NCBI GenBank assembly: GCA_905215935.1
Contig: CAJMRY010000006.1
Location: forward strand, 12,168-76,167
Direction: 5' to 3'
Source: an uncultured bacterium
GTDB taxonomy: Bacteria; Bacillota; Clostridia; TANB77; CAG-508
Length of the DNA: 64,000 nucleotides
Shown here one piece after another: positions 41,623-60,392 of the stretch (its first letter is position 1; each line of letters opens with the position of its first letter). Made by a program: the position numbers and the translations under genes. The notes beneath the pieces were generated by a model, which ran no database searches, had not been told where the DNA came from, and saw only the letters and a program-made list of their open reading frames with translations.

Positions 41623-41658
41623 AATAAATTTAAATATAAGAATGAAAGGTTGTATAAT

Positions 41659-42492: not shown

Positions 42493-42524
42493 ATTAAGTA
42501 GTAAAAAAAATAAGGAGTAAAATT

Positions 42525-43178: not shown

Positions 43179-43205
43179 ATAGTGCTAAAATGAGGTAAGA
43201 ATAAT

Positions 43206-43613
43206 ATGAGAAAATTGAATTTAATATTAGTATATAATAAAGATAAAAATAAGATTCTTATGTGCAAAAGAGAAAAAGAACCATATAAAGGTAAATTTAA
43301 TCTTGTTGGAGGGAAATTAGAAGAAAATGAAAATGAGATAGAAGCGGCATATAGAGAGTTAGAAGAGGAAACAGGGATAACTAATAAAGAGATTAGATTA
43401 GAACATTTGATGAATTTTCAATATATAATGGAAGATACAGAATTAGAAGTGTATTTTGGAAATCTAAATAAAGAAATTAATTTGGTAGAAGAAGTTAATA
43501 AATTATATTGGATTAATAGTGATTCTAATTTCTTTGATTCTAACAAGTTTGCAGGAGAGGGGAATATTGGACATTTAGTAAAACAAGCAGAGATTTATAT
43601 AGAGAATAATTAG
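43206..43613 (+). CDS. Nudix hydrolase
   Basis: Nudix box GGKLEENENEIEAAYRELEEETGI. Confidence 0.8.
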   Translation: MRKLNLILVYNKDKNKILMCKREKEPYKGKFNLVGGKLEENENEIEAAYRELEEETGITNKEIRLEHLMNFQYIMEDTELEVYFGNLNKEINLVEEVNKLYWINSDSNFFDSNKFAGEGNIGHLVKQAEIYIENN

Positions 43614-43822
43614 CTTAGAGTTATATAGAAATATATGTTAGAATAAAAATTTAGAAATTAATGGTTAATACATCACATATTTTATACAAATATTGAAATA
43701 TTAAATTATTAATGCTATATTAAAAATGTAGTAATAATTTATTTAGGATTCACAATTAGAATGATATGAATTACGCAATAATATTATGTGAAACATAAGA
43801 AAAAAGGAAGGGGAAAAGAAAA

Positions 43823-44500
43823 ATGAGATATGAAATAATTGGAAAAACAGTACCAGTAGTAGAAGTTACTCTAAATAGAGGAGAATCAATGTATTCACAA
43901 AGAGGAGGAATGTCTTGGCAAACAGAAGGTGTTAATATGACAACTAATGCAAGAGGTGGAGTAATGAAAAGCCTTGGAAGAATGTTTACAGGAGAATCTA
44001 TTTTTATGAATACATATACAGCAGGTGTAGATGGAGCAAAAGTAGCTTTTGCAACTACTGTACCAGGTGATATTGTACCAATTAATGTAGGAGAAAATAA
44101 TGGCTTTACAATACAAAAAAATGCATTTTTATGTGCAGAACCAGGTGTTGATATACAAATAGCATTTACAAAGAGATTTACAGCAGGTTTATTTGGTGGA
44201 GAAGGTTTTATATTACAAAAAGCTACAGGTAATGGAATGCTATTTTTAGAAGTAGATGGAGATCCTGTAGAAAGAGTTTTAGCTCCAGGAGAAGTATTAA
44301 AAGTAGATACAGGTAATGTAGTTGGTTTTGAAAGTACAGTTTCATATGAGATTGAAACAATAAAAGGATTAGGAAATATATTTTTAGGTGGAGAAGGATT
44401 ATTCTTAACAAAATTAGTTGGTCCTGGTAGAGTTATTATACAATCACAAAATTTTGGGGATTTTGCGGGAAGAATATTGGGGTTAATGCCTAAGAAATAG
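43823..44500 (+). CDS. AIM24/TIGR00266 (DUF124) family protein
   Basis: MRYEIIG...VVEV.L..GESMY...GGMSW and the C-terminal GEGLFLTKL.GPG.V.IQS. Confidence 0.7.
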   Translation: MRYEIIGKTVPVVEVTLNRGESMYSQRGGMSWQTEGVNMTTNARGGVMKSLGRMFTGESIFMNTYTAGVDGAKVAFATTVPGDIVPINVGENNGFTIQKNAFLCAEPGVDIQIAFTKRFTAGLFGGEGFILQKATGNGMLFLEVDGDPVERVLAPGEVLKVDTGNVVGFESTVSYEIETIKGLGNIFLGGEGLFLTKLVGPGRVIIQSQNFGDFAGRILGLMPKK

Positions 44501-44743
44501 AGAAATATTATTATTTATCAAAGTTTTGATAGATAATAGGAATAAAACTATAAAGAGGAACAGAGTTATTCTGTTCTTTTTTTATAGAATGGAAAAATTA
44601 GTGTATAAAGTAAAATGCAGTACACATAAAAAATATACGTAAATTGACAGCTAAAAATAAACATAGTATAATGTAATAAAGTTGTAAAACTTTTTTTGCA
44701 CATGCGAAAGAATATTATTTTATCATTAACAGGAGGAAAGAAC

Positions 44744-45928
44744 ATGGGAACAATCAGAATGGGAGCATGGGATTGCGATTATTGTAATAAAAAAGCAATT
44801 CCAGGAAATCTCCGGGAATGTCCAGGATGTGGTAATCCAAGAGGAGAAGATGTAAAGTTTTACTTGCCAAGTGATGCAAAGCCAGTAGAGGATGAAACAA
44901 AGGTTAGTAGGAATCCAGATTGGTTATGCAATTACTGTAAATCATTTAATCCTGATGGAGAAGAAATTTGCATATCTTGTGGACATGCAAGAGAAGACAG
45001 CGATTTAGACTATTTTCAGCATCACAAGAAGAACTCATCAAAACAGGCGTATGACGAATCAGATTCATTTCACACTGAATATGGTAGTCATGTTTTGGAT
45101 GATGAAAGTGACACAGGGGATAATTTTTTTGAGGATTTCGAAGAATATGAAAATCCAAGTGCGAATGAGAAAAGCTCTAAGGTGGCAAATGCTAAAGCTT
45201 TAATTTCAGCAGGATGTGAAAAATTGTCCAAAGTTTCAAAAGCTAAACTGTTAATATGTTTAGCAACAATTGCAGTAGTGATATTTTCCATAATTGCAAT
45301 TGCAGTTCCTAGAACAGAAACCATGAAAGTGGAAAAAGTTATCTGGGAATATAGTATGGATATTGAGAAATATCAAACTGTAAATGAAGATGATTGGTTC
45401 TTGCCAGACGGTGCCAGAGTACAACGAACGGCAAGAGAGATACACCATTATGAATCAGTCCTTGATCATTACGAAACAAAAAGTCGTGAGGTGTCAGAAC
45501 AGGTTCTTGTAGGATATGAAGAGGTAGTTGTAGGCCACAGAGATTTAGGCAATGGCTATTTTGAAGATATAACCTCACAAAAACCTATATATGAGACCAG
45601 GTACAAGACAGAGTATTATGAAGAACCCGTATATAGGGATGAACCTGTATACAAAACAAAGTATTATTATGAAATCGAAAGATGGCTATATGATAGAACA
45701 GAAACTTCAACAGGTTTTGATAGAAATACATATTGGCCAGAAGTAGATTTGAGTGATAATGAAAGGATTTCAGATAAAGATTCAAAATATTTTGTACAAG
45801 TTATCAATAAAGATGAGGAATCTGAAAAGATATCTGTGAAATATGATGAATGGTGTGAAATTGAAGAAGGAGATGAAGTGACAGTTAAAAAGTGGATTTT
45901 CCACAAGAAAATAGTATTTGAAGAGTAA
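44744..45928 (+). CDS. Double zinc-ribbon, single-pass membrane protein
   Basis: ATG after aggagga. WDCDYCN..CPGCGNPRG and WLCNYCKS..CISCGH, one TM segment (LICLATIAVVIFSIIAIAV), and a Y/E-rich ectodomain. It contains an ordinary in-frame CGG at 44813. Confidence 0.6.
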   Translation: MGTIRMGAWDCDYCNKKAIPGNLRECPGCGNPRGEDVKFYLPSDAKPVEDETKVSRNPDWLCNYCKSFNPDGEEICISCGHAREDSDLDYFQHHKKNSSKQAYDESDSFHTEYGSHVLDDESDTGDNFFEDFEEYENPSANEKSSKVANAKALISAGCEKLSKVSKAKLLICLATIAVVIFSIIAIAVPRTETMKVEKVIWEYSMDIEKYQTVNEDDWFLPDGARVQRTAREIHHYESVLDHYETKSREVSEQVLVGYEEVVVGHRDLGNGYFEDITSQKPIYETRYKTEYYEEPVYRDEPVYKTKYYYEIERWLYDRTETSTGFDRNTYWPEVDLSDNERISDKDSKYFVQVINKDEESEKISVKYDEWCEIEEGDEVTVKKWIFHKKIVFEE

Positions 45929-45947
45929 AAATAGTATTTGATTAAGC

Positions 45948-45987
45948 ACAAAGTAAGCATTCGAAATGAATGCTTACTTTGTTTTTT
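45948..45987 (+). terminator. Intrinsic terminator
   Basis: Perfect 15-bp stem acaaagtaagcattc/gaatgcttactttgt followed by T5. Confidence 0.85.
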
Positions 45988-46383
45988 CGATTATAAATTA
46001 ATTTGACTGTTAAAATATTTGTATCTATTTAGTTTTTTATTTTCTTTTGGCATATGAGAAATTTAGAGTAGTATATAGTATTTTATTATTACTCAGAATT
46101 AATTTCATCTGCAACAGGTGAAATATATCGTTTTTATGCAAATTTAACAGTGAAAATTAATATGAGTTTCTTATGTTGCCATATTTTTTTTAGTTAAAAT
46201 AATATAATCAATAAGATACTTGAGGAATGTAATAATGTATGATATATTAATGTAAAATTCAACATATAATTAGTATTTTACATAGGAAAAAAAGATTATA
46301 AGAGATATTATATGAATAATAAAATATTAAATAAACAAATTTCAATTATATAATTAAAAATAAAGAAAACGAGAGGTAAAAAT

Positions 46384-46731
46384 ATGGATAAATACGAGTT
46401 GAAACAGGATCTAGATAAATTAAGTAAAAAAAGTAGTGTAGAAGATTTACAAAAATATATTAAGGACATGATTGAGGTTAAAGGGTTTAAGACAAGTTTA
46501 TTAGAAAGAATGTGTTTATTAACAGAGGAAATAGGAGAACTTGCAAAAGAGGTTAGAAAAACAGACAATAATTTAACAATAGATATTAATAAAGATTATA
46601 GTTCTAGTTTAGAGAATGAGATAACAGATGTATTTATATGTTTGATGGGAATGTGTGAATTACTAGATATGGATATTGTTCAAGGATTAAAGAATAAAGA
46701 AGAAATTAATTTTAATAGAGAGTACAAGTAG
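46384..46731 (+). CDS. MazG-like nucleotide pyrophosphohydrolase
   Basis: LTEEIGELAKEVRK ... ENEITDVFICLMGMC (EEXXE/D metal motifs). Confidence 0.7.
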   Translation: MDKYELKQDLDKLSKKSSVEDLQKYIKDMIEVKGFKTSLLERMCLLTEEIGELAKEVRKTDNNLTIDINKDYSSSLENEITDVFICLMGMCELLDMDIVQGLKNKEEINFNREYK

Positions 46732-46794
46732 ATTTTATTTATATCATATTACATAATAAATAGCTAAAGTATAAAGACAGCAAAGGGGGATAAG

Positions 46795-47388
46795 ATGGAA
46801 TTAGTTAGTATAGATATTAAAGAATTTAAAAAAGATGTGTATGAAGATTATAAAAAGTTATTTCCAGAAGAAGAGAGAAAAGCTTTTAAACATTTAAAAT
46901 CATCTTTTGAAAAAGGAATAACAACATTTCTTAAAATTATGATAGAAGAGAAATTTATAGGATTCTTTATTGTTAATATAGTAAAAGATATAAAATGTGC
47001 GCATTTGGATTATTTTGCAATATTGCCAGAATATCAATCAAAGGGATATGGAACAGAAGCTATTAGAAAGCTAAAAGAAGAATATAAAGATTATTATGGG
47101 ATTTTTATAGAAATAGAAAAAGTTGGTGAAGGAAGAACTTTAGAAGAAAATGAAATTAGAAAGAAAAGAGCAAACTTTTATGAAAGAATTGGGTTTAGTA
47201 AAATGAAATTTGATATAGATTTATATCAAGTTATATATTCTGCATATATTTTACAATGTAGTGTAGATGATATAAAAGAAGAAAATGTTATAGAAGATAT
47301 TTGGGAAATATATAGAACAATTATGGGAGAAAAAAGATTAAGGAAGAATTGTAAAGTGATAAAGGATATAGGTACCCTGAATAAATAG
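46795..47388 (+). CDS. GNAT family N-acetyltransferase
   Basis: ILPEYQSKGYGTEAIRKL. Confidence 0.7.
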   Translation: MELVSIDIKEFKKDVYEDYKKLFPEEERKAFKHLKSSFEKGITTFLKIMIEEKFIGFFIVNIVKDIKCAHLDYFAILPEYQSKGYGTEAIRKLKEEYKDYYGIFIEIEKVGEGRTLEENEIRKKRANFYERIGFSKMKFDIDLYQVIYSAYILQCSVDDIKEENVIEDIWEIYRTIMGEKRLRKNCKVIKDIGTLNK

Positions 47389-47434
47389 GACGTAGTTTAG
47401 TAAAAATATAAATTTATTATAAGAGGTGGAAGAT

Positions 47435-47968
47435 ATGGGATTAATTTGTGTACTTAAAGATAAGGATATAGGACAAGAACCAATAGAAATGAATGAGAAC
47501 CCAGAGTTGAGATTAGGCTCTAGAGGGATAGTAATAAGAGAAGATGGAAAAATTGCAATATTTAACAAAAGCAATAAAAATGAATACAAACTTCCAGGAG
47601 GAGGCATAGAGGGAGATGAATCTCCTGAAGAAGCCTTTAAAAGAGAGGTTTTAGAAGAAACTGGATGTGTGGTTGAAATTATAAAAAAGTTAGGAACAAC
47701 AGAGGAATACAAAAGCCTAACTAATTTTAAACAAATATCTAATGTTTTTATTGGAAAAGTTATAGAAGATACGAAAAAATTAAATGTAACCGAAAAGAAA
47801 AAAAGTGAAGGGGCTAAATTAGTATGGGTAGAGCCACAGGAAGCTTTAGAGTTAATAACAAATTGCTATGATAAATTAGTTGCATCTGATTATGAATCTA
47901 TATACCAAACTAAGTTTATAGTTTTAAGGGATAGGAAAATATTGGAATATTATTTAAAGAATTGCTAA
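47435..47968 (+). CDS. Nudix hydrolase
   Basis: Nudix box GGGIEGDESPEEAFKREVLEETGC. Confidence 0.8.
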   Translation: MGLICVLKDKDIGQEPIEMNENPELRLGSRGIVIREDGKIAIFNKSNKNEYKLPGGGIEGDESPEEAFKREVLEETGCVVEIIKKLGTTEEYKSLTNFKQISNVFIGKVIEDTKKLNVTEKKKSEGAKLVWVEPQEALELITNCYDKLVASDYESIYQTKFIVLRDRKILEYYLKNC

Positions 47969-48018
47969 TAAAGGAATTTTAGTTTTATATTTTGAGAATA
48001 GAAATATGGAGGGGAAAT

Positions 48019-48468
48019 ATGGAAGAACAAATAGATGTATTAGATGAAAATGGAATGAAAACTGGGGAGATAGTTACTAGAAAAGAAGTTCATGTACGAG
48101 GATTATGGCATAGAATAATAGTAGTTGCAATTATAGATAAAAACGGTCATCTATTAATGCAACAGAGATCAATAAAAAAAGAAACAAATCCAGGTAAATG
48201 GGATGTATCAACAGCAGGACATGTATCTGCAGGACAGAGTTCTAAAGAAGCAGCTATAAGGGAAGTGTCTGAAGAAGTTGGAATGAATGTTCAGGAAGAT
48301 GAATTAGAATATATTTGTACATATAAAACTATAAATAAAATAAAAGAAGATTATATTGCAAATCATATTTATGATTTTTATATTGTGAAAAGAGAGAATA
48401 TAGAAATGAGTAATATTAAGATGCAAGAAAGTGAAGTAGATCAAGTAAAGTTATGTAATCTTGATTAA
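48019..48468 (+). CDS. Nudix hydrolase (IDI-like) with an apparent premature in-frame TAA
   Basis: GLWHR...QQRS..K...PGKWD.S.AGHV.AG.S..EAAIREVSEEVGM. After the TAA at 48466, 25 further in-frame sense codons (VEEMLDNKQVVKRDEVYRELIKYLK) run to the TAG at 48546. Confidence 0.7.
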   Translation: MEEQIDVLDENGMKTGEIVTRKEVHVRGLWHRIIVVAIIDKNGHLLMQQRSIKKETNPGKWDVSTAGHVSAGQSSKEAAIREVSEEVGMNVQEDELEYICTYKTINKIKEDYIANHIYDFYIVKRENIEMSNIKMQESEVDQVKLCNLD

Positions 48469-48565
48469 GTAGAAGAAATGTTGGATAATAAACAAGTAGT
48501 AAAAAGAGATGAAGTTTATAGGGAATTAATTAAATATTTAAAGTAGGGGAGTTGTTGAGAATAGT

Positions 48566-48808
48566 ATGGAAGAAAGTAGAATTGTAAAAGAAGGACAAGT
48601 ATATAAACATTTTAAAGGAACAATGCATAGAATTATCTGTATTGCGAAACATTCAGAGACAAAAGAGGATATGGTGGTTTATACTCATGATGATGATAAT
48701 GAAGTTTGGGCAAGACCACTAGATATGTTTTTGTCGGAAGTAGATCATGAGAAATATCCTGAGATAAAGCAGAGATATCGTTTTGAATTACAGGAGGATG
48801 TTAGATAG
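48566..48808 (+). CDS. DUF1653 domain protein
   Basis: YKHFKG..Y.........HSET.E.MVVY ... WARPL.MF. Confidence 0.65.
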   Translation: MEESRIVKEGQVYKHFKGTMHRIICIAKHSETKEDMVVYTHDDDNEVWARPLDMFLSEVDHEKYPEIKQRYRFELQEDVR

Positions 48809-49033
48809 GGGAAGCGTAGAATTTTGGGAAAATGCTATGAAATGTGATATGAGAAGTTTGAGTTTTATAGAATAAGAAATAGCCTAGAGATTTAGATCTA
48901 GGCTATTAAAGTGCTTTTAGGTGTTGATATTTGTTTAGATCGAGAAAGTTAAATGTTGATATATGTAATAGAAAAAGACAATGATTGCAATTAAAGAGGA
49001 ATTAGGAAATTAAATAAAGAAGGGAGAGAATAA

Positions 49034-49435
49034 ATGGAGTGCGAAAAATCATGTGGATGTATTATTATAGAAGATGAAAAAGTTTTATTGGTTAAGCAGA
49101 CAAAAGGTCATTGGGGATTTCCAAAAGGGCATGTGGAGGCTGACGAAACAGAGGTGGAAACAGCAATTAGGGAAGTAAAAGAGGAAGCTAATGTAGATGT
49201 AGAGGTTGAAGGGAATAAAAGATATACAATGAGATATGTTACAGATAAAGGAAATATGAAAGAGATTGTATATTTTGTTGCTAGAAAAGTTGGTGGAGAG
49301 ATAAAAGAGCAAGAATGTGAAATAGATGGGATAGAATGGTTAGATTTTAGAGATGCTTTAGAAAGAATTACGTATGATAATTGTAGAGAATTGTTTAGGG
49401 AGGTTATAGATAATATTGGAGAAAGATGGAGTTAA
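49034..49435 (+). CDS. Nudix hydrolase
   Basis: Nudix box GFPKGHVEADETEVETAIREVKEEANV. Confidence 0.8.
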   Translation: MECEKSCGCIIIEDEKVLLVKQTKGHWGFPKGHVEADETEVETAIREVKEEANVDVEVEGNKRYTMRYVTDKGNMKEIVYFVARKVGGEIKEQECEIDGIEWLDFRDALERITYDNCRELFREVIDNIGERWS

Positions 49436-49548
49436 ATGTTTTTTGATTAGACAAATATGACAAAATATGTTAAAAATTTCATATTTTATTGAGAAAAAGT
49501 AATGTTTATGATATAAAATTTATATGAGTTATGATAATGGAAATGTAG

Positions 49549-49875
49549 GTGGATAAAATGCAAGAGATAATGAAAGAGATAAAACAATTTAATGAAGAAA
49601 GAGAGTGGGACAAATTTCATTCTCCAGAGAATTTAGCTAAATCAATATCGATTGAAGCGGGAGAACTATTAGAATGTTTTCAATGGAATAGTGAAGAATA
49701 TAATAAAGAAGAAGTTTGTGAGGAATTAGCAGATGTTTTTACTTATTGCATTCAAATGGCTATGAAATTAGACGTTGATCCAAAGGAAATTATATTAAAA
49801 AAATTGGAAAAAACAGAAAAGAAATATCCAGTTGAGAAATCAAAAGGAGTAAGTACAAAGTATAATAAATTATAA
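49549..49875 (+). CDS. MazG-like nucleotide pyrophosphohydrolase
   Basis: FNEEREWDKFHSPENLAKSISIEAGELLECFQW ... ELADVFTYC. Confidence 0.75.
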   Translation: MDKMQEIMKEIKQFNEEREWDKFHSPENLAKSISIEAGELLECFQWNSEEYNKEEVCEELADVFTYCIQMAMKLDVDPKEIILKKLEKTEKKYPVEKSKGVSTKYNKL

Positions 49876-49894
49876 GAAAATTTAAGGGGTAATA

Positions 49895-51676
49895 ATGATG
49901 AATTCAAATTTGGAAGTTAAAGGATATGAGTTTAATACAGACACATTAGACAGTATTAATCCAAAATATATTAATTGGCCAGTAGTTTATTTAATAAATA
50001 ATAATAATGAAATATATATTGGTGAAACATCAAATATAAAAAGTAGAATGAAACAACATTTAGATAATCCAGATAGAAAATATTTGGAATTAATAAACAT
50101 AATATTTGATAAGCAATTTAATAAATCTGCGATATTAGATATAGAACAAAATTTAATTCGTATGTTCTATGCTGATACCAGGTTTAATTCAGATAATGGC
50201 ATATTAAATAAAAATAATGGACAATCTTCGAAACATAATTATTATCAAAGAGAAATGTATTTAAATAAATTAGTGAATATATGGGAAAAACTTAAGCAGA
50301 AAAAGTTAGTTAATAAATCTTATAATAATATTATAAATTCTGATATATATAAATATTCTCCGTTTATTTCATTAACTAATGAGCAAGAAGATATAATGTG
50401 TAAAATTATTAATAATATATTGGATTGTTTAGAGGGAAAAAGCACGAATGAAACTTCAATTATTACAGGTCTTGCAGGAACAGGTAAAACCATTTTGGCA
50501 ATAAATTTAATATATAATATAGTTAATGCAAATCTTATCAAGATTGATACTTTCAAAGAAGATAGTGAAGTAGAAAATTTATTGGAATTTGATAAAACTA
50601 TGCATAGGCTAAGAAAATATATATTATACAATGAAAAAATAAAAATTGGATTTGTAGTTCCAATGCAGTCTTTAAGAAAGACTTTAAATGTTGTATTTAA
50701 ATCAATAAATAGTAAAAAACTAAAAAATATTGTAATTGGACCAGGTGATGTTACTAAAGATAATTATGATGTAATTATATGTGATGAAACCCATAGGTTA
50801 GCACAATATAAAAATATTCAAAATATGGGATATTTTAAGAAAATATGTAAAGAACTTCAAATTGATGAAAAAACATCTACACAACTTGATTGGATAAGTA
50901 TGAAATCAAAATATAAAGTATTATTTTATGATGGAAATCAAACTATTAGAGGATCAGACATTTCAGCAGAAAAAATGAACGAGTTAATACAAAGAAATAG
51001 TGATAAATGTTACTCATTAACAACACAATTAAGGTGTAAATCGGGGGAACTATTTTTAGATAATATAGATAAATTATTTAAATGTACGTTAAAAGATAAA
51101 ATAGAATCATCTAAAGATTTTGAAATAAAAGTATTCAATGATCCTAATGAAATGATTGAAAAGATAAAGCAACTAGATAAAGAAATGGGATTATGTAGAA
51201 ATGTTGCAGGAAATGATTGGGAGTGGAAATCGGAACGTAAGTCAAATGAAGAGATAAGAAAAAATGATTTATACGATTTTGATTTTGAAGGAAAGAAATA
51301 TATATGGAATCGTACAAAAAAAGGTTGGATACTATCAAATAATGCAGTAAATGAAATTGGATGTGTGCATACAGTACAGGGGTATGACTTAAACTATGTT
51401 GGAGTAATTATTGGTCCTGACTTAAGTTATAATAAAGGGAAAAATAAGATTGAAGTTCATATTGATAAATTAAAAGATTTAAATGTAAAAAAAGGAACAG
51501 ATGAAGAAACTGTAAAAAACTATATAATTAATACATATAAGATTTTATTGGAACGAGGAATTAAAGGTTGTTATATTTACGCATGTGATGAAAGTATGCA
51601 GAGATATTTGGAGGAACATATAGAAAATTATAATTCTAATAAAGAAGAAACTAAACAAGTAATATTAAAAAATTAG
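49895..51676 (+). CDS. GIY-YIG nuclease domain fused to a DUF2075 P-loop NTPase/helicase-like protein
   Basis: GIY-YIG motifs VVYLINNNNEIYIGETSNIKSRMKQH. Walker A GLAGTGKT, Walker B ICDETHRL, and the DUF2075 C-terminal motif IGCVHTVQGYDLNYVGVIIG. Confidence 0.7.
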   Translation: MMNSNLEVKGYEFNTDTLDSINPKYINWPVVYLINNNNEIYIGETSNIKSRMKQHLDNPDRKYLELINIIFDKQFNKSAILDIEQNLIRMFYADTRFNSDNGILNKNNGQSSKHNYYQREMYLNKLVNIWEKLKQKKLVNKSYNNIINSDIYKYSPFISLTNEQEDIMCKIINNILDCLEGKSTNETSIITGLAGTGKTILAINLIYNIVNANLIKIDTFKEDSEVENLLEFDKTMHRLRKYILYNEKIKIGFVVPMQSLRKTLNVVFKSINSKKLKNIVIGPGDVTKDNYDVIICDETHRLAQYKNIQNMGYFKKICKELQIDEKTSTQLDWISMKSKYKVLFYDGNQTIRGSDISAEKMNELIQRNSDKCYSLTTQLRCKSGELFLDNIDKLFKCTLKDKIESSKDFEIKVFNDPNEMIEKIKQLDKEMGLCRNVAGNDWEWKSERKSNEEIRKNDLYDFDFEGKKYIWNRTKKGWILSNNAVNEIGCVHTVQGYDLNYVGVIIGPDLSYNKGKNKIEVHIDKLKDLNVKKGTDEETVKNYIINTYKILLERGIKGCYIYACDESMQRYLEEHIENYNSNKEETKQVILKN

Positions 51677-51745
51677 AAAAGACAAAGAAAAAATATCCAG
51701 TAGAAAAAGCTAAAGGAGTAAGCACAAAATATAATTAATTATAGA
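51662..51745 (+). pseudogene. Remnant of a second MazG-like gene 3' end, duplicating 49791-49875
   Basis: About 85 nt at roughly 80% identity. An out-of-frame reading gives LKKLEKTKKKYPVEKAKGVSTKYN, against ILKKLEKTEKKYPVEKSKGVSTKYNKL in the intact gene. Confidence 0.7.
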
Positions 51746-51771
51746 AATAATAATTAATTGGAGGAATTATT

Positions 51772-53730
51772 ATGATAGTATATGAAGCAACAAAGCAGCT
51801 ATTTGTAGAAGATGTTGTAAAAGATAAAATTGAAGAGAATATAGATAGAAAATTTTATGAAAAAATGGGATATCACACATCACAGAATGAAAGAAAAGCA
51901 TGGAATAATTCTATGCAATATATGATGAAAGTTTTGATAGATAATAATATACCTGGAAATGTAGGAATAGCTATTGAATTTAAAATTCCAAATACATCTA
52001 AGAGAGTAGACTTTATAATTACAGGTAAGGATGGTAAATTTAAAAATACAGCTATTATTGTTGAATTAAAACAATGGACTGAAGTTGATATAATTAATGG
52101 AAAAGATGGAATAGTACAAGCATATACAGGACATGCTTTAAGAGAAGTTGTACATCCATCATATCAAGCATGGTCATATGCAACAACAATAGAAGATTAT
52201 AATGAGAGTGTACAAGATAGACAAATAGATTTACATCCATGTGCTTATCTTCACAATTATTTAACTGTAACACCTCCAACACTATTATCAGATAATTATA
52301 AGTATTATTTAGAAAAGGCACCAACTTTTGTAAAAGGTGATGTAGAAAAGTTAAGAAATTTTATCAATAAGTATATTAAACATGGCGATGATAAAGAAAC
52401 ATTATATATGATTGAAAATGGAAAAATTAGACCATCTAAGTCCTTACAAGATACGTTATCAAGTATGTTAAAAGGTAATCAAGAATTCATTATGATTGAT
52501 GACCAAAAACTTGTATATGAAACAGCTTTAGAAATGGCAAGAAAATCATATAGAGATGGAAACAAAAGAGTTTTAATAGTTAAAGGTGGACCAGGTACAG
52601 GAAAATCAGTATTAGCAATCAATTTGTTAGTTCAATTAACAAATGAAAATATGGTTTGTTCATATGTAACAAAGAATTCAGCACCTAGAAATGTTTATGC
52701 TACGAAGTTAAGTGGAGATTTTAGAAAAACAAGAATCAATAACTTGTTTAAAGGATCAGGATCATTTGTAGAATCTGTAGAAAATGAATTTGATGTTTTA
52801 ATAGTAGATGAAGCACATAGATTAAATGCAAAATCAGGAATGTTCCAGAACTTAGGTGAGAATCAAATAAAGGAAATTATTAAAGCCTCTAAATTTTCAA
52901 TATTCTTTATAGATGAATCACAAAGAGTAACTTTAAAAGATATAGGAAGTATCGAAGAAATACAAAAATATATTAGACAAGCTAATGCTGAATCAGAAAT
53001 AATGGAATTAGAATCACAATTTAGATGCAATGGATCTGATGGATATATTGCTTGGCTTGATGATGTATTAGAAATAAGAAATACTGCTAATAGTGATGGA
53101 TTTGATTTGGATTATGAGGTTAAAGTATGTGATACTCCAAATGAAGTAAGAGATATAATATTTGAAAAGAACAAAATAAATAATAAAGCAAGATTACTTG
53201 CAGGATACTGTTGGAACTGGATAAAAGAAGGAAAAAATAAATCAGATATATTTGATATAACCATTCCAGAATATAATTTCGCAATGAGCTGGAATTTAGG
53301 GAATAGTCAAACATGGGCAATTGATTCAGAGTCAGTAAATGAAATAGGATGTATACATACAGCACAAGGACTTGAATTCGATTATGTTGGAGTAATTATT
53401 GGAAATGATTTAAGATATGAAAATGGTAAGATAGTTACAGATGTTACAGAAAGAGCAAAGACAGATCAATCAATAAAAGGAATATATAAAATGTTTCAAC
53501 AAGATTTTGATAAAGCAGAGAAAATAGTAGATGAAATAATAAAAAATACATATAGGACATTAATGACAAGAGGACAAAAAGGATGTTATATTTATTGTAC
53601 AGATAAAAACTTGTCAAATTATCTTAAGAAAAGATTAAATCAAAAAGATGAAATAACTTATTCAATTGATGAAGATGAGAAAAATAACTTAATGGTTGCT
53701 GAAGAAGGAGAAGAATATAGGTATGAATAA
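51772..53730 (+). CDS. PD-(D/E)xK-like nuclease domain fused to a DUF2075 P-loop NTPase/helicase-like protein
   Basis: The N-terminus VDFIITGKD...AIIVELKQW has a D...ExK pattern. Walker A GGPGTGKS, Walker B IVDEAHRL, IGCIHTAQGLEFDYVGVIIG. Confidence 0.7.
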   Translation: MIVYEATKQLFVEDVVKDKIEENIDRKFYEKMGYHTSQNERKAWNNSMQYMMKVLIDNNIPGNVGIAIEFKIPNTSKRVDFIITGKDGKFKNTAIIVELKQWTEVDIINGKDGIVQAYTGHALREVVHPSYQAWSYATTIEDYNESVQDRQIDLHPCAYLHNYLTVTPPTLLSDNYKYYLEKAPTFVKGDVEKLRNFINKYIKHGDDKETLYMIENGKIRPSKSLQDTLSSMLKGNQEFIMIDDQKLVYETALEMARKSYRDGNKRVLIVKGGPGTGKSVLAINLLVQLTNENMVCSYVTKNSAPRNVYATKLSGDFRKTRINNLFKGSGSFVESVENEFDVLIVDEAHRLNAKSGMFQNLGENQIKEIIKASKFSIFFIDESQRVTLKDIGSIEEIQKYIRQANAESEIMELESQFRCNGSDGYIAWLDDVLEIRNTANSDGFDLDYEVKVCDTPNEVRDIIFEKNKINNKARLLAGYCWNWIKEGKNKSDIFDITIPEYNFAMSWNLGNSQTWAIDSESVNEIGCIHTAQGLEFDYVGVIIGNDLRYENGKIVTDVTERAKTDQSIKGIYKMFQQDFDKAEKIVDEIIKNTYRTLMTRGQKGCYIYCTDKNLSNYLKKRLNQKDEITYSIDEDEKNNLMVAEEGEEYRYE

Positions 53731-53899
53731 AGATGAAATGATGCCGATTGTAAAATTCATAGCTGAAATGGACAAGAAATTTATAGACGATGATAACAGA
53801 TATAATTTATCAAAAGAGCAAAAAGAAATATTAAAGCACTTTGTTGATGAATGCTACGAAAATTTTAAGAATGATAACTGGAGAAAAGCAATTATTTGA
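53723..53899 (+). CDS. Hypothetical small protein (58 aa)
   Basis: ATG after gaaggag, overlapping the end of the DUF2075 gene (translational coupling). Confidence 0.4.
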   Translation: MNKDEMMPIVKFIAEMDKKFIDDDNRYNLSKEQKEILKHFVDECYENFKNDNWRKAII

Positions 53900-54061
53900 A
53901 TAAATGAATATAAATTATGAAGAAAATTTTTCTATCATATTTTAATTGGTGTAGAACAAAAGTATAATTTTTATTATCAATGGAAAATTACTATAATTTA
54001 TGTTATTTAGTCATATATAAAATTTATAAACTTGATCAATACTATTATATGGAGGTACTAT

Positions 54062-57000
54062 ATGAATAATTCCAAAGAAAGAGGATATATATTTCAAGAT
54101 GCTTTTTCGTCATATATAATATCTGAGTATATTAATAGAATATTAAATGGAGAGCATATTGATACTAGAGTAGTATTAGATAAAAAATCAAATATAGAAG
54201 ATAAATTTGATGATTTAAAAATAATAGAAAAAGATATTATTAAAGAAATTCAAATTAAATATAGTGAATCAAAAGAAATTCTTGATTGGTCAGATTTAAA
54301 AAATGCAAGTAGTGATTATAATTTGTATCAATTTATTAATAGCTATAAAGTATCAAAAAATAATAAAAACATTCTAATTATAAGAAATACCTCAGGAAAT
54401 ATAAGTACGGAATTAGAAAAAAAGTTATTAAAAAATGGACAAAAGGGATTCTTTTTACAATCAAGGTTATATAAAATAAAAAATGAGGAAAAGATTATAA
54501 ATGAACTTTTTGATTGTAGAATAATAAAAAGCAAAAAAGAAAGAAAACAACCATTTAAGAGTATTACGAAAAATGACATAAAAGATTTTATAGATAATTT
54601 CATAATAGAAGTAACAAATCAAGGATTAGAAAATGATGATTTTAGAAATTTAATATTAAATTCTTTTGACAGCGGAGTTATTGGTTATGCTAAAGGCACC
54701 AATCAAAGTATTTATAATACTTTATTAAATACTATAAGAACTTATAGAGCCGAAGATAATTATGTGGAAAAACAAATAAATGAGATTTCTAACGAAATAA
54801 TGAAAGCTTTAGGATTAGAAGAATATTTAAGTCCAGTTTCAAATAAAATGGAAATTGATGAATTATTAGAAATAAAAAGAAGTAACGATATAAATAATAT
54901 TATTAATTTATTAAAAGAAAATAATTTGTTGCATATATATGGAGCTCCAGGAGTAGGAAAAAGTTGGTTATCAAAACAACTAAAAGATAAAATAGAAGAA
55001 AATTCACTAATAACAACATATTATTTCTATTTTAATAGAAATGATGAGGAAAGAAGTAAGAGAATAAAAGAAATAAATTTTCTAACTACATTAAATTATC
55101 ATTTACAAAAAAAACATGGGTTTAATATTAACTTATTTAACAATGATATTAATTCTATAATAGATCAAGCTAATAAAGATGATAAAATTCATTATCTGTT
55201 GTTAGATGGAATTGATCATATAGAAAGAGAAGATACGGATCAAAAGATTGTTATTAAGGAATTATTAAAATCATTGACACAGATAGCAGATAGTACAGAA
55301 AAAATGAAAATAATTCTTATTTCTCAACCAATTGATGAAATTGACGTGAAATGTAAATATGAAATTAAAAATTTCCATATAGAAGAGACTAAAATAATAG
55401 TAGGAAAGTTTTGTAAAAAATACGATTTAAATATAAATATTAGCATTGAAGAAATACATAGGAAAACAAATGGTAATCCATTATTAATTAACTATTTAAT
55501 GAGAGAGTATATGAATAAAGGTAATATTCCAGCAAATGATTTTAATACATTAGATGAATATTATGATTATATTTTTCAAGGATTACAATTTTATCTATAT
55601 ATGTATTTTGCTATATTACAGTTTCCTGTAACGGTAAATGAATTAGCTGAATTGAGTAAAACTGATTATGTTGAAGTTAATAATGAGATAGGAAAGATAA
55701 AGAATGTATTAACTAAAAATGAAAGAAATGAATATATGATATTCCATGAAAGTTTGAAGAGATATATTTTAAAAAATCCTAAAATAGAGACTAACTTATT
55801 GAAAAATAATTTGGTTGATTGGCTTAATTCATTAGACATATATGAAAACGAGAAAGCATTTAATTATTTGCCAGAATTAATTGTTAATACTAATAATTTT
55901 TTAAAGTTTAATAAAGAATATAATATTGATAAACTAATTAATTGCATTTTTGAAAAAGGGATATCAATTAAAGAAATAGAGAAATTTAATGTGTGCTGTT
56001 ATAAAATATTTTCGTTGAGAGAGGAATTCGAAAAAATATATTATATAGAACATTTTTCAGATATTTTAAATACATATCAATATGAAGTAGATTTAGATAT
56101 ATTTGAAGATTATATAAGAATATTATATTTAAGAGGTGAAAAAGAGTTATTAGAAAAAATCTTATATAAAAGAGGATTAATAAAATATGCTAACCACGAG
56201 CAGGAATGGGAATATATTAGAAAAATTTGTATATATCTATTAAAAAATAATGTAAAATTAAATTATGAAAATATAATCAATATTTATTTTGAAAATTATA
56301 ATAAAAGAGATTTGACACAAATAGATAAATTGATTATTCCAAAAAATGAAATAGGAATCATGGTTAATTTTATAAAGTTATATAGTGAAAAGAAAGAGAA
56401 AATTATGGAAGAAATAGGTAGAAAAGATAATAGGCTAAAGGAAACCATAAAGAAATTTATAGAAGGAAAATTAGATGGATATAATACAAAATTACTAGAA
56501 TATGGTTTGCTGGTTCCTGATAAAAAAATTGATATAGAAATAATCAAAAGAAAATATAAAGGCCAAAAGTACATTAGTAATATAGATGAAAATATTTTAG
56601 CTTATTTTTTCAATAATGGAATAAATAAAAATATCGAATATTTAAATAATGTATGGGAAAAGGAATATTTAGAAATTCCTAAATTTTATAAATTATTAGT
56701 TAGTTTAATTGAAGTTTTCACTAATACAGAATTAAAAGATAACAAGAGTAAGTTCGAAGAAATATTTGACAAATTAAATTACTATGATTTGAATTTTGAA
56801 GGAAATATTATTAATTCTGAAGAAAAATTAGACTTTCTTGGAAATTTATTTGTTAAAAATGAAAATAACAATTATATAATTATTAAATTTATGGAATTTT
56901 ATGAAAAAATGAAAAAAGAAAAATCAAATAGACATGAAGGAATTTTACCATTTTTGGGAAATATATATAAATCTATTGTATATAATATAAAAAAGAATAA

Positions 57001-58861
57001 TATAAAGTTAGAAATCGATACATTAAGATATTTATTCTTTAATATTGATTCAAGAGAAAGTAATTATTCAAATTTGAGAAATTTAATGACGAATTACATA
57101 ATGCTTTATTTAGTAAATGGAGATCAAATAGAAATTTACAAAGAAATAAAATGCTTAATGTTCTCTTATGGAAGTTATAGAGATATTCAAATATGGGAAT
57201 TAATTGATATTTATGATAGATTAAAAGAAGAAAAATTATTAGACAGACAAAAATTTTTGAAATTATATACAATAGCATATAATGCAATTGAAAGAATGGA
57301 TAGAGCTAAAGATGTTTGGCATATTTTAAATGAATTGCTAGAAAAATATGCAAAAGATTTTTCTGCAGAGGAGGCTATGAAAATATTCTTTTATACTATG
57401 GAAATAAGTTATAATGGTATAAGAGATGAAGATATTTTATTCTCTGAAATATATGAAAATATCAAACTTAAAGATTATAAAAAAAATAAGTTTTTATATT
57501 ATTATTGGAGGTATATATCTGGCAATATTCAATATTCTATAAATAATAGAAATAGTTATTTAAAAAGTTGTATAAAATTTGCTACAAATAAACAATACAA
57601 CTATATAAAGAAAGAAATTATAGAAAATATCAAAATAAAGCAAGATGATATTATTGAAGGAGAAATAGAAAAGATTATAAATAATAAGAAGAAGTTTATG
57701 GAATATGAGAAAAATGAAGAACAAAATGAAAAAGAGAAAGAAATAGATTATATCTATATTGACAATTTTAATGATTTTATTTTAAAGATTAATGATACAT
57801 ATCTATCAGTTCATGATATTGCTTATGAATCGATATGTAAAATTATTAATTCTTTACCAGAAGAAGAAGAGATCATAAATAAAATTTTAACTATAAAACA
57901 ATACACATCAATAAACTATATTTATAATATATTATTAAAAAATTCTTATGATTTTTCAACTTCAAATAAAAACAAACTAGTTCCTTTTTTAGTAGGACTG
58001 TATTATAGAGGAAATGGTAATGTTACCAATATGGAAAATGATGAAATCTATGAAAAATGTTTAGCAATGGATAGAGATATGACAGAAAAAGTTTTAAAAA
58101 AATATTTTAAAAAAGATGAAGAATATCAAATTGGAAACAAAGCTGGGAAATTATATAAATATTTGGTAAAAAAAGAACATATCCCATGTGTATATGAAAA
58201 TTTAATTACTATGTATAATGAAAGATTACCTCAATTAATAGATTTTACAAATGAATATTATAGCAACTATAACCTAGGAGATAAAAACGACATCCTTTTA
58301 AATTATTTTATGTTAAAATTGAAAGAAAATGAAACACGTTTTCCCTCAACTGTCGATGAATTATTATTTGTTAATTTATATGATGTAAAATGTAATAAAA
58401 ATTTTTTTATAAAAAATGATAAGGCTATTTTCTTGGCACTTACTGTGTATGCGATATATTTATCTGATCTTTGGCTTATGAAAAATTCTTTTTTGAATTG
58501 GAATCAATTAACAGAAAAGAATATTATTGTATGTGAAATAAATCAAAATAAAACTTCAATAAATATGAATATGGAAAATTGTACAAATTCAATAAAGAAA
58601 AAAATCATATCAAATCCGAGAGGATTATTAGCAATGAATGGACATGAATCCTATAAATATGTGTCTAATATGTTTCAATTATTTGACATTTATGGAGGAA
58701 TAGAAGATAGAAATATAATAAAAAGAGAATATAAAATTGGCAGAAATAGTAGAATAAAATATGTTATGATAAAGCAACAAAATAATAATAAATTAAAAAA
58801 ATTAGCAAAAGTACAAAATATTTATAAGATAAGAAGCATGCTGGAAGAATTTTTGTTTTAG
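54062..58861 (+). CDS. Giant STAND-type NTPase (1599 aa) with an N-terminal Cap4/DUF4297-like nuclease domain; Avs-like defence candidate
   Basis: ATG after ggagg. N-terminus ERGYIFQDAF..., DDLKII, EIQIKYSE (GYxFQ / D / QxK pattern). Walker A IYGAPGVGKSWL, Walker B HYLLLDGIDHIE. An all-helical repeat region of more than 1000 aa follows. Confidence 0.65.
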   Translation: MNNSKERGYIFQDAFSSYIISEYINRILNGEHIDTRVVLDKKSNIEDKFDDLKIIEKDIIKEIQIKYSESKEILDWSDLKNASSDYNLYQFINSYKVSKNNKNILIIRNTSGNISTELEKKLLKNGQKGFFLQSRLYKIKNEEKIINELFDCRIIKSKKERKQPFKSITKNDIKDFIDNFIIEVTNQGLENDDFRNLILNSFDSGVIGYAKGTNQSIYNTLLNTIRTYRAEDNYVEKQINEISNEIMKALGLEEYLSPVSNKMEIDELLEIKRSNDINNIINLLKENNLLHIYGAPGVGKSWLSKQLKDKIEENSLITTYYFYFNRNDEERSKRIKEINFLTTLNYHLQKKHGFNINLFNNDINSIIDQANKDDKIHYLLLDGIDHIEREDTDQKIVIKELLKSLTQIADSTEKMKIILISQPIDEIDVKCKYEIKNFHIEETKIIVGKFCKKYDLNINISIEEIHRKTNGNPLLINYLMREYMNKGNIPANDFNTLDEYYDYIFQGLQFYLYMYFAILQFPVTVNELAELSKTDYVEVNNEIGKIKNVLTKNERNEYMIFHESLKRYILKNPKIETNLLKNNLVDWLNSLDIYENEKAFNYLPELIVNTNNFLKFNKEYNIDKLINCIFEKGISIKEIEKFNVCCYKIFSLREEFEKIYYIEHFSDILNTYQYEVDLDIFEDYIRILYLRGEKELLEKILYKRGLIKYANHEQEWEYIRKICIYLLKNNVKLNYENIINIYFENYNKRDLTQIDKLIIPKNEIGIMVNFIKLYSEKKEKIMEEIGRKDNRLKETIKKFIEGKLDGYNTKLLEYGLLVPDKKIDIEIIKRKYKGQKYISNIDENILAYFFNNGINKNIEYLNNVWEKEYLEIPKFYKLLVSLIEVFTNTELKDNKSKFEEIFDKLNYYDLNFEGNIINSEEKLDFLGNLFVKNENNNYIIIKFMEFYEKMKKEKSNRHEGILPFLGNIYKSIVYNIKKNNIKLEIDTLRYLFFNIDSRESNYSNLRNLMTNYIMLYLVNGDQIEIYKEIKCLMFSYGSYRDIQIWELIDIYDRLKEEKLLDRQKFLKLYTIAYNAIERMDRAKDVWHILNELLEKYAKDFSAEEAMKIFFYTMEISYNGIRDEDILFSEIYENIKLKDYKKNKFLYYYWRYISGNIQYSINNRNSYLKSCIKFATNKQYNYIKKEIIENIKIKQDDIIEGEIEKIINNKKKFMEYEKNEEQNEKEKEIDYIYIDNFNDFILKINDTYLSVHDIAYESICKIINSLPEEEEIINKILTIKQYTSINYIYNILLKNSYDFSTSNKNKLVPFLVGLYYRGNGNVTNMENDEIYEKCLAMDRDMTEKVLKKYFKKDEEYQIGNKAGKLYKYLVKKEHIPCVYENLITMYNERLPQLIDFTNEYYSNYNLGDKNDILLNYFMLKLKENETRFPSTVDELLFVNLYDVKCNKNFFIKNDKAIFLALTVYAIYLSDLWLMKNSFLNWNQLTEKNIIVCEINQNKTSINMNMENCTNSIKKKIISNPRGLLAMNGHESYKYVSNMFQLFDIYGGIEDRNIIKREYKIGRNSRIKYVMIKQQNNNKLKKLAKVQNIYKIRSMLEEFLF

Positions 58862-59183: not shown

Positions 59184-60392
59184 ATGTTAATAAGATTTAG
59201 TTTTAAAAATTTCAAATCATTTAAAGACGAAAATTGTTTAGATATGGAAGCAACAGTATTAAAAGAACATGAGTATAATGTTGCTAAAATAGATAATGGT
59301 GAATATTTAAAAGTATCTGCAATTTATGGTGCTAATGCTAGTGGAAAAACTAATGTATTACAAGCTTTTGATTATATGAAAAATAGAATATTAATAAGCG
59401 ATGATTCTAAAAAAAGTTCTCCAATAGATGAAGAAAATATATATAGTTTTATGATAAATGAAGAACCAATTGCTTTAGAAGTAGAAATACTAGCAAAAAA
59501 TAATAAAATATATAAATATGGTTTTGAATTAATAAAAGATAATATAATTTCAGAATGGCTATATGAAAAAAGAGTTAACAAATTTTATTCTATATTTGAA
59601 AGAGAAAATAATAATGTAACAATGAAAACAAATAAAATAGCTAGTTTGTTAAATATATATGAAAAGACATTATTTTTGAATATATATAGTAAAATAGATA
59701 AAGATAACGAAGACTTTGCAAATGTTTATTATTGGTTTATGAATAGCAATTATTTAGATTTAGGAAATCCTGATTTTGATAGAATCATTGATAAAAGGGT
59801 TTCATTTAAAATATTAACTGATAAAAATTATAAAAGGGAATTATTAAAATTTATAAAATCATTTGATGCTGGAATAGAAGATATAAATACTATACCAGAT
59901 TCTGTAGAAGCAGTAAAAAACAATAATGTAATTGTAGATATTAAGGTTACTCATAAAAGAGAAAATGGAGAAGAAAAGGCATTGCCATTTTACCTAGAAT
60001 CTAATGGCACTAGAAAAATGTTTTACTTATTTGATTTTTTTATGGATGCATTAAAAAATGGAATGGTGTTATTTATTGATGAATTAGACACAAAATTACA
60101 TCCATTATTAACAAGATATATTATTAATCTATTTCATAATAGTGATACGAATAAAGGAAATGGTCAGTTAATATATTCAACACATGATACAGTAAATTTG
60201 AATAAAGAAACTTTTAGAAGAGATGAAATTTGGTTTGCAGAAAAAGATAAGGATGGAATTTCTACAATATATTCTTTGGCTGATTACAAAATTAATGATG
60301 TAAAGGTTAGAAATGATGCAACTTACAATAAAGATTATTTATCTGGAAGATATGGTGCTATTCCAGTATTAGAGAATTTTGTAAAATTTTAA
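59184..60392 (+). CDS. AAA_15/AAA_21-type ATPase (ABC/SMC-like, abortive-infection-type)
   Basis: MLIRFSFKNFKSFKDE, Walker A GANASGKTN, Walker B LFIDELDTKLHP, STHDT, and the C-terminal YLSGRYGAIP. Confidence 0.7.
   Translation: MLIRFSFKNFKSFKDENCLDMEATVLKEHEYNVAKIDNGEYLKVSAIYGANASGKTNVLQAFDYMKNRILISDDSKKSSPIDEENIYSFMINEEPIALEVEILAKNNKIYKYGFELIKDNIISEWLYEKRVNKFYSIFERENNNVTMKTNKIASLLNIYEKTLFLNIYSKIDKDNEDFANVYYWFMNSNYLDLGNPDFDRIIDKRVSFKILTDKNYKRELLKFIKSFDAGIEDINTIPDSVEAVKNNNVIVDIKVTHKRENGEEKALPFYLESNGTRKMFYLFDFFMDALKNGMVLFIDELDTKLHPLLTRYIINLFHNSDTNKGNGQLIYSTHDTVNLNKETFRRDEIWFAEKDKDGISTIYSLADYKINDVKVRNDATYNKDYLSGRYGAIPVLENFVKF

Follow-up and report, generated by a model that had tools for sequence, protein, structure and literature searches.

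The gene at positions 54,062–58,861 (+ strand) in a 64,000-nucleotide stretch of contig CAJMRY010000006.1 (assembly GCA_905215935.1, an uncultured bacterium of the Clostridia) probably encodes a single-protein anti-phage receptor of the Avs (antiviral STAND) kind, a sensor-nuclease. STAND denotes signal transduction ATPases with numerous domains, and the whole stretch is called the window here. The protein of 1599 residues is tripartite, as is an Avs protein, in which the sensor has at least 400 residues. It consists of a nuclease-like head (residues 1–262), a nucleoside triphosphatase (NTPase) module with a winged helix (residues ~270–620) and a sensor (residues 621–1599). Defence association, as that term is used in PMC13581612, is seen in its Cap4-type effector and its defence-type neighbours. 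Judged by its sequence, the family is unnamed and highly divergent and comes from gut Firmicutes of low guanine-plus-cytosine (GC) content. It is a known kind of receptor and a new family at the sequence level. A first-pass annotation of the DNA had proposed an Avs-like single-gene system, and the 1599-residue frame and the motifs that it quoted are present where it had placed them.

The Cap4-like head

The N-terminal effector (residues 1–262; 54,062–54,847, + strand) appears to be a divergent Cap4/DUF4297-type PD-(D/E)xK domain. The AlphaFold2 model, built on the family alignment, has a predicted local distance difference test score (pLDDT) of 86.8 and a predicted template modelling score (pTM) of 0.83. 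It shows an alpha-beta-beta-beta-alpha-beta core in the order of restriction endonucleases and a helical C-terminal half. The best Foldseek match in the PDB is the Lamassu protein LmuA (9ux7_C, E 2.9e-5, TMq 0.50; also 9nxx and 9hr5). Hachiman HamA (8zue_A, E 5.2e-5) and HerA-associated DUF4297 (8ziq_A, E 3e-3) were also found. Generic PD-(D/E)xK proteins (Holliday-junction resolvases, McrC and HincII) matched more weakly, below these defence nucleases. Cap4 of CBASS (cyclic oligonucleotide-based antiphage signalling system), LmuA, HerA-associated DUF4297 and HamA are defence effectors that are activated by oligomerisation.

Besides the fold of residues 1–262, the head has two motifs in common with the Cap4/DUF4297 superfamily, G-[YF]-x-[YF]-Q at the N-terminus and, after it, D...Q-x-K on the PD-(D/E)xK core. 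In the window protein these motifs read G8-Y9-I-F11-Q12, D50-D51-L52 and Q64-I65-K66, and together with D13 they are invariant or nearly so in the family. The putative catalytic segment, D47-K-F-D50-D51 ... Q64-I-K66 (residues 47–66; 54,200–54,259, + strand), lies on strands beta2–beta3 of the core (E52–56 and E59–67 in the model). Across 61 proteins of the superfamily, the equivalents of D47, D50, D51, Q64 and K66 are the only invariant columns, and 90% or more of the proteins have G8, Y9, Q12, D13, D40 and K42. Because the residues of the PD-(D/E)xK signature are the only invariant columns over such diverged proteins, we argue that catalysis has been retained.

By sequence, the head is reached through its relatives. 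The Pfam model PF14130 (Cap4_nuclease, gathering score 26.2 bits) matched neither the protein nor the head alone nor 13 family heads, even at E ≤ 10, and so the direct Pfam DUF4297 match that the first-pass annotation had suggested looking for was not obtained. The same model was matched by 20 of the 61 wider relatives at E ≤ 0.1 (best E 2.2e-6), and it was the sole recurrent family outside the NTPase. The head of one relative, P0039, matched the PADLOC model of LmuA (E 6.6e-8). These matches form a sequence bridge from the head to the Cap4 nucleases. A search of PDB sequences with the head profile found nothing. Taken with the confident model, the matches of the relatives uphold the Cap4/DUF4297-like head that had been annotated. 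It is probably an active nuclease, catalysis being deduced from fold and conservation.

The head is fused to a STAND module, whereas other members of the superfamily are combined with SAVED (Cap4) or have SMC-like LmuB/C, HerA or HamB helicase partners. No SAVED, LmuB/C, HerA or HamB partner is present nearby in the window. A CBASS reading of the head was rejected, as no SAVED or CD-NTase family was found in the protein or its neighbours. A Lamassu reading was also rejected. There is no LmuB match, the neighbours are helicases, an AbiLi/AriA-like ATPase and a toxin–antitoxin pair, and no neighbour is conserved across loci.

The STAND module

The nucleotide-binding domain (residues ~270–430; 54,869–55,351, + strand) was defined by a Pfam match and by a motif alignment over 36 proteins, that is, the family protein and 35 wider relatives. 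NPHP3_N matches residues 281–421 with E 5.3e-10 and 40.2 bits against a cutoff of 24.8. NACHT (PF05729) reaches 21.9 bits, under its gathering score of 26.7, and nSTAND6 and AAA_16 are also below their cutoffs. The central STAND NTPase of the first-pass annotation is supported by NPHP3_N and by the set of motifs, the sensor-1 position apart, and the NACHT or AAA_16 match that it had pointed to is replaced by one to this related family.

Walker A (GAPGVGKS, G294–S301; 54,941–54,964) and Walker B (LLLDGIDH, L379–H386; 55,196–55,219) are both on the + strand. They belong to the invariant patterns G-x-P-G-x-G-K-S-W and hhhh-D-G-h-D-H-h-x-R over the 36 proteins. The Arg that ends the second pattern, R389 (55,226–55,228, + strand), is invariant and stands seven residues after the Walker B Asp. 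The helical and winged-helix part (residues ~431–620; 55,352–55,921, + strand) contains a GxP motif, G471-N-P-L474, and a winged-helix motif, F561-H562-E-S564 (55,742–55,753). Over the same proteins these are invariant as GN(P/A)L(Y/L) and (F/Y)-H-E-S-(F/L)-(K/R)-R. We take these alignment motifs to be the standard motifs of the STAND superfamily.

The sensor-1 position is unusual. It is occupied by S421-Q422-P423 (55,322–55,330, + strand), and S-Q-P recurs across the family and in almost every one of the 35 wider relatives, whereas NACHT-type STAND proteins have (T/S)-S-R-P. This triplet and the Arg after Walker B may represent an altered nucleotide-sensing arrangement. The module shares with bNACHT and NPHP3_N-type STAND proteins the NPHP3_N match, a NACHT-like Walker B (hhhhDGhD-) and the winged-helix F-H-x-S. 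It differs from bNACHT in the low NACHT score, in S-Q-P and in having no PADLOC bNACHT match.

Among the curated Avs models, the NTPases of the wider relatives match Avs1b (AVAST type 1) alone, with E 1e-4 to 1.5e-12 and 19–44 bits against an equivalog cutoff of 1500 bits. The window protein itself matches neither Avs1b nor Avs7. Avs1b differs in its effector, which is a protease and not a nuclease.

The window protein could also be a STAND protein outside defence, such as a regulator or housekeeping switch, or have a catalytically dead Cap4-like head that serves only to bind DNA or to oligomerise. Clades with and without a defence role are intermixed among STAND proteins (PMC13581612). The best Pfam match, NPHP3_N, is named after a ciliary protein, no defence hidden Markov model matches the protein, and the sensor-1 position is atypical. 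We nevertheless consider such a role extremely unlikely. The nuclease signature has been kept over 61 diverged proteins, Pfam found no DNA-binding helix-turn-helix (HTH) output domain, and the distribution is patchy, at low GC and in restriction–modification, abortive-infection, toxin–antitoxin or mobile-element contexts in several lineages.

The sensor and its relation to SeAvs3

The part after the STAND module is ~980 residues long (621–1599). An AlphaFold2 model of residues 561–1599 (pLDDT 84.1, pTM 0.78) has 63% helix and 5% strand. The large helical C-terminal sensor of the first-pass annotation is supported by this confident model. Its estimate of more than 1000 residues of helical repeats was roughly right, with a shorter length and a small beta-rich module at ~1487–1561 as the corrections. 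Three parts are distinguished, all on the + strand. Residues 621–1486 (55,922–58,519) form an alpha-helical array like that of tetratricopeptide repeats (TPR), as judged from the model and Foldseek; it contains a strongly conserved block at residues 1033–1092 (FSYGSYRDIQIWEL ... ERMDRAKDVWH). Residues 1487–1561 (58,520–58,744) form a module rich in beta strands, with four main strands assigned by DSSP (model positions 927–933, 940–945, 973–981 and 992–1001). G1521, Y1531, Y1533, Q1539 and D1549 in this module are invariant in the family alignment. A long terminal helix, residues 1564–1598 (58,751–58,855; model 1004–1038), is poorly conserved, with 33% column identity.

The only significant matches of the sensor in the PDB are the chains of SeAvs3 bound to the PhiV-1 terminase (8dgc_A: E 3.4e-4, probability 1.0, TMq 0.38, 1091 columns; 8dgc_B: E 7.2e-4, TMq 0.30). 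The next Foldseek matches are unrelated solenoids with E of at least 1.4e-2 and TMq of ~0.1–0.13, the first of them with TMq 0.12. A control search of a viral structure library with the sensor gave background only (best E 0.029, TMq 0.11). Pfam found no TPR, WD or other family in the sensor, in agreement with the first-pass annotation, which had recognised no TPR or WD signature by eye and had suggested a divergent or new type of sensor. The sensor is new at the level of sequence and not at the level of fold, where prediction and Foldseek matched it to a known STAND sensor. The SeAvs3-like fold, a long TPR-like array and a beta-rich C-terminal sensor, is recognised with moderate agreement between a model and a structure in the bound state.

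After the TPR array, SeAvs3 and EcAvs2 have a beta-rich "C-terminal sensor", to which the ATPase of the terminase binds (PMC13601566). Avs1 is predicted to be structurally very similar to Avs3 (PMC13601566). The long TPR of SeAvs3 forms two cavities, for the ATPase and nuclease domains of the terminase, and bound ATP is contacted via Y1714 and the H1770 loop (bioRxiv 10.64898/2026.08.25.746987). The module at residues 1487–1561 is a candidate counterpart of the C-terminal sensor of Avs2 and Avs3, as judged from the predicted model.

The most conserved block of the sensor is the one in the helical array, at residues 1033–1092 (window 57,158–57,337; FSYGSYRDIQIWEL ... NAIERMDRAKDVWH), where many residues are invariant. 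It is also the only sensor segment that aligns, weakly, with some of the ~2000-residue relatives (profile positions 977–1115, independent E down to 2e-5). This block is a candidate site of contact with the ligand or the NTPase.

The architecture agrees with that of SeAvs3 (AVAST type 3, PDB 8DGC) in the order of parts, that is, a Cap4-type nuclease, a STAND NTPase and a helical sensor with a beta-rich end. Like SeAvs3, the window protein is taken to be a single-gene system in defence islands. SeAvs3 is ~430 residues longer (2028 against 1599), and the window protein has Gln for Arg at sensor-1. The Cap4-STAND-TPR architecture is shared also with the capsid-sensing SeAvs7 (Avs7); no Avs7 chain is among the matches listed.

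Several observations weigh against an assignment to the Avs kind, and to Avs3 in particular. The protein is recognised by no curated model. The whole protein has no PADLOC match at E ≤ 1 and no NCBIfam match, and the Pfam models Cap4_nuclease, TPR and NACHT give nothing above cutoff. PADLOC, NCBIfam and Pfam searches with the whole protein, the head alone, the C-terminus alone and 13 family heads returned no Cap4, LmuA, Avs, TPR or WD match. The empty PADLOC result, a check that the first-pass annotation had named, is read by us as divergence and not as refutation. The queries against PDB sequences were the protein itself, profiles of the head and of the full family, two distant relatives and a profile built from eleven ~2000-residue relatives, and none of them gave an Avs, Cap4 or nucleotide-binding leucine-rich repeat (NLR) chain. 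Profiles of the family, of the heads and of the ~2000-residue relatives find no SeAvs3, Avs4 or other solved STAND protein by sequence, and membership of Avs3 is not indicated at that level. The structural link is one Foldseek match of moderate quality (TMq 0.38, root-mean-square deviation 13 Å, 12% identity) of a predicted model to a ligand-bound structure. The sensor of SeAvs3 is ~300 residues longer than that of the window protein. The SeAvs3 chain is absent among the best 50 matches of the head, which is structurally nearer to LmuA and HamA. With Gln in place of the canonical sensor-1 Arg, the nucleotide cycle may also differ. Even profiles found no sequence similarity, which confines the link with Avs3 to fold and architecture.

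Proposed mechanism and ligand

The Cap4-STAND-TPR architecture, tetramerisation and cleavage of double-stranded DNA (dsDNA) have been established for SeAvs3 and SeAvs7 (PMC13581612). In these proteins the sensor ligand relieves autoinhibition, ATP leads to a tetramer via the NTPase, and the Cap4 domains form an active dsDNA nuclease (PMC13581612, PMC13601566). From the domain architecture, folds, motifs, conservation and genomic context described here, we infer ligand binding, oligomerisation, nuclease activity and a defence phenotype for the window protein as well. By analogy with SeAvs3 and SeAvs7, it would be, at rest, a monomer that is bound to ADP and autoinhibited. A conserved phage protein made during infection would bind to the helical array and to the beta-rich module at its end. 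Binding would open the STAND module, and ATP binding would then drive oligomerisation, probably to a tetramer. Through oligomerisation, the Cap4/DUF4297-type PD-(D/E)xK domains would assemble to form an active nuclease for dsDNA (D50/D51, Q64 and K66), which would degrade DNA and abort the infection.

Because the only significant structural relative of the sensor is the terminase sensor of SeAvs3, we tentatively propose the large terminase subunit of phage as the most likely ligand. This proposal comes from a predicted model, and we would give it somewhat less than an even chance. The same sensor-nuclease may recognise another ligand (a portal, capsid, tail component or replication protein) or a non-protein cue, in which case the likeness to SeAvs3 would stem from a scaffold of common descent. 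TPR-like Avs sensors have at least 14 other ligand specificities, unrelated sensors can share a target, and related folds can diverge (PMC13581612). The fold-level similarity (TMq 0.38) with no sequence link is in keeping with this, as is a sensor ~300 residues shorter than the two-cavity TPR of SeAvs3 (bioRxiv 10.64898/2026.08.25.746987). We regard another ligand as rather unlikely all the same. Among all solved structures, which include EcAvs4–portal and many solenoids, SeAvs3 alone was matched significantly. The terminal beta-rich module resembles the terminase-binding C-terminal sensor common to Avs2 and Avs3, and the NTPases of the relatives are nearest to Avs1b, another terminase sensor.

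Family and distribution

A search of 5.8 billion protein clusters gave 24 full-length homologues, which are cluster representatives. They are 1578–1621 residues long, 37–95% identical to the query and all unnamed. Three distant proteins in the same search match just the first 38–46% of the query. In the family alignment, conservation is fairly even along the protein (mean column identity 60%), with no hypervariable part. The genome matches are metagenome-assembled genomes from the gut, assigned to uncultured Clostridia, Clostridium sp. and Bacilli, and all have 22–25% GC. One 90% cluster of the family holds 133 member sequences, and one member of that cluster is seen on 135 contigs.

In an exhaustive profile search of 1.84 billion cluster representatives, the head profile was found in just 86 clusters. 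The complete relatives found in this way are nearly all proteins of 1400–2030 residues with the same head and NTPase. The module common to relatives of 1435–2037 residues ends at residue ~600–640, and few relatives can be aligned past that point. A shared head and NTPase with C-termini that cannot be aligned is the pattern expected if effector and NTPase are kept while sensors diverge.

Lee et al. 2026 described 589 STAND clades and 684 sensor clusters, with Cap4 used as a seed (PMC13581612). Because Cap4 served as a seed, the wider superfamily was probably included in that catalogue. The protein might be the first representative of an Avs family that belongs to none of the named ones, and possibly to none of the published sensor clusters. 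It would then be a compact Cap4-STAND lineage of uncultured low-GC gut Firmicutes, from a rare superfamily with sensor-1 Gln, whose SeAvs3-like scaffold is adapted to minimal terminase recognition or to a different phage ligand. We hold this combined view to be possible, with considerable doubt.

Genomic context

Three genes of one possible module are upstream of the STAND gene. These are a MazG-like gene (49,549–49,875), a DUF2075/Schlafen-type helicase with a GIY-YIG head (49,895–51,676) and a second helicase of this type (51,772–53,730). The helicases match the PADLOC models AbiO, Nhi, PDC-S41 and PDC-S14. Downstream is an AbiLi-like and also AriA-like ATPase (59,184–60,392; PADLOC AbiLi, E 2.6e-90), for which no AbiLii partner could be recognised. 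Next come an MqsR-like toxin below the Pfam cutoff (60,477–60,833) and an antitoxin of 338 residues with MqsA, HTH_3 and SocA/Panacea domains (60,835–61,851).

Relatives of the STAND protein with 71% identity (loci L007–L010, 7,632–9,000) are in the same chromosomal region, with an AIM24 gene 90% identical to that of the window. The distance from AIM24 to the STAND gene is ~9.5 kb in the window (43,823–54,061) and ~0.7 kb in these loci, where the STAND gene follows AIM24 almost directly. The downstream cargo is wholly different, namely a Bsp6I-type restriction–modification system, a GIY-YIG protein and a helicase in L007–L010 against AbiLi and MqsRA in the window. The arrangement resembles a defence hotspot whose content varies while its place on the chromosome is fixed. 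Elsewhere, one family member adjoins a methylase and a MutH-like nuclease, and one is inside an integrase/Mob element bearing a type I restriction–modification system. The surroundings of another include genes for FtsK, SSB, a serine recombinase and Fic, together with MazG-like and DUF2075 genes.

A multi-gene system made up of the STAND protein, the MazG-like protein and the DUF2075/Schlafen-type helicases was weighed here. The MazG-like gene and a DUF2075 helicase adjoin the STAND gene in the window (49,549–53,730) and in locus L006 (14,908–17,340), and a DUF2075 helicase is upstream of it in L001 (1,222–3,198). The L006 copies of the MazG-like and helicase genes share 63% identity with those of the window, although the STAND proteins beside them share just 37%. 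However, order, orientation and spacing vary among the loci that have these genes. The pair is absent beside the gene in L002–L005 and L007–L012, where restriction–modification or mobile-element genes are found instead. The helicases match stand-alone defence models (AbiO and Nhi), and the characterised Cap4-STAND Avs proteins act alone (PMC13581612). We consider a multi-gene system very improbable. The L006 data suggest that the MazG-like gene and the helicases form a separate module, which moves in the same islands as the STAND gene. Since the neighbours vary, it was likewise judged unlikely that the helicases or the MazG-like gene are obligate partners.

No neighbour is conserved throughout the loci compared, and no tRNA gene marks an integration site. 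Because the neighbours differ by lineage and yet are mostly restriction–modification (types I and II), abortive-infection-type, toxin–antitoxin or mobile-element genes, we read the STAND gene as a single-gene system that moves among defence islands and mobile elements. Nine independent genomic contexts support the single-gene, defence-island proposal of the first-pass annotation.

Small "house-cleaning" genes form an unusual run at positions 40,765–49,435, upstream of the island. It comprises four NUDIX genes (43,206, 47,426, 47,992 and 49,034), two GNAT acetyltransferases, a MazG-like open reading frame (ORF; 46,384), a TehB-type methyltransferase, a metallophosphoesterase and AIM24. Of the NUDIX genes, the one at 49,034 matches the PADLOC candidate PDC-S07 (E 5.6e-13).

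Gene call and composition

The sequence of the whole gene (54,062–58,861, + strand) reads as one intact ORF of 1599 codons with a stop codon that ends at 58,861, and the gene call is supported by its translation and the 24 full-length homologues. A Shine-Dalgarno sequence, GGAGG (54,051–54,055, + strand), is located 6 nt upstream of the ATG at 54,062. An automatic ORF list had placed the start at an upstream TTG (54,032). All 24 homologues begin at the methionine of a conserved MNxKERGY, and for this reason TTG 54,032 is not taken as the true start. An open frame of 4.8 kb in DNA of 21% GC cannot be due to chance.

The gene has 20.9% GC, against 26.0% for the window. The first-pass annotation had described the sensor as extremely rich in N, K, I and Y. 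The richness is real and is not specific to the sensor, as the content of these residues is 41.6% in the head, 41.1% in the NTPase and 44.8% in the sensor, against 32% in ten other ORFs of the window. A bias particular to the sensor was rejected accordingly, the bias being gene-wide.

Scans for regulatory signals were uninformative in this AT-rich DNA, with 55 promoter-like sites against 60.6 expected and no terminator found. Shortly before the STAND gene, an ORF of 67 residues (53,696–53,899) runs across the 3' end of the helicase gene and has no significant family match. At the equivalent place in L001, the locus with 95% identity, there is a gene of 653 residues. The last 1.7 kb of the window (62,300–64,000, ~21% GC) contains no ORF of at least 100 residues on either strand and may be a non-coding, degraded or repeat region.

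Implications

Avs proteins correspond, in bacteria, to the NLR immune receptors. About 90 Avs families have been proposed, and most were characterised in Enterobacteria. In other respects the present gene is of the expected kind and in the expected place. The STAND nucleotide switch has a testable peculiarity here, namely the substitution of Gln for Arg at sensor-1 across the superfamily. If the terminase prediction is true, a sensor that is ~300 residues shorter and has no sequence similarity to SeAvs3 would help to define the minimal structural needs for terminase recognition. The example also shows how a receptor with all three parts, Cap4, STAND and sensor, can escape PADLOC, NCBIfam and the Pfam model of the effector. 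Although these detectors miss it, the family is common in human and animal gut metagenomes, and counts of defence genes in low-GC gut Firmicutes are likely to fall short as a result.

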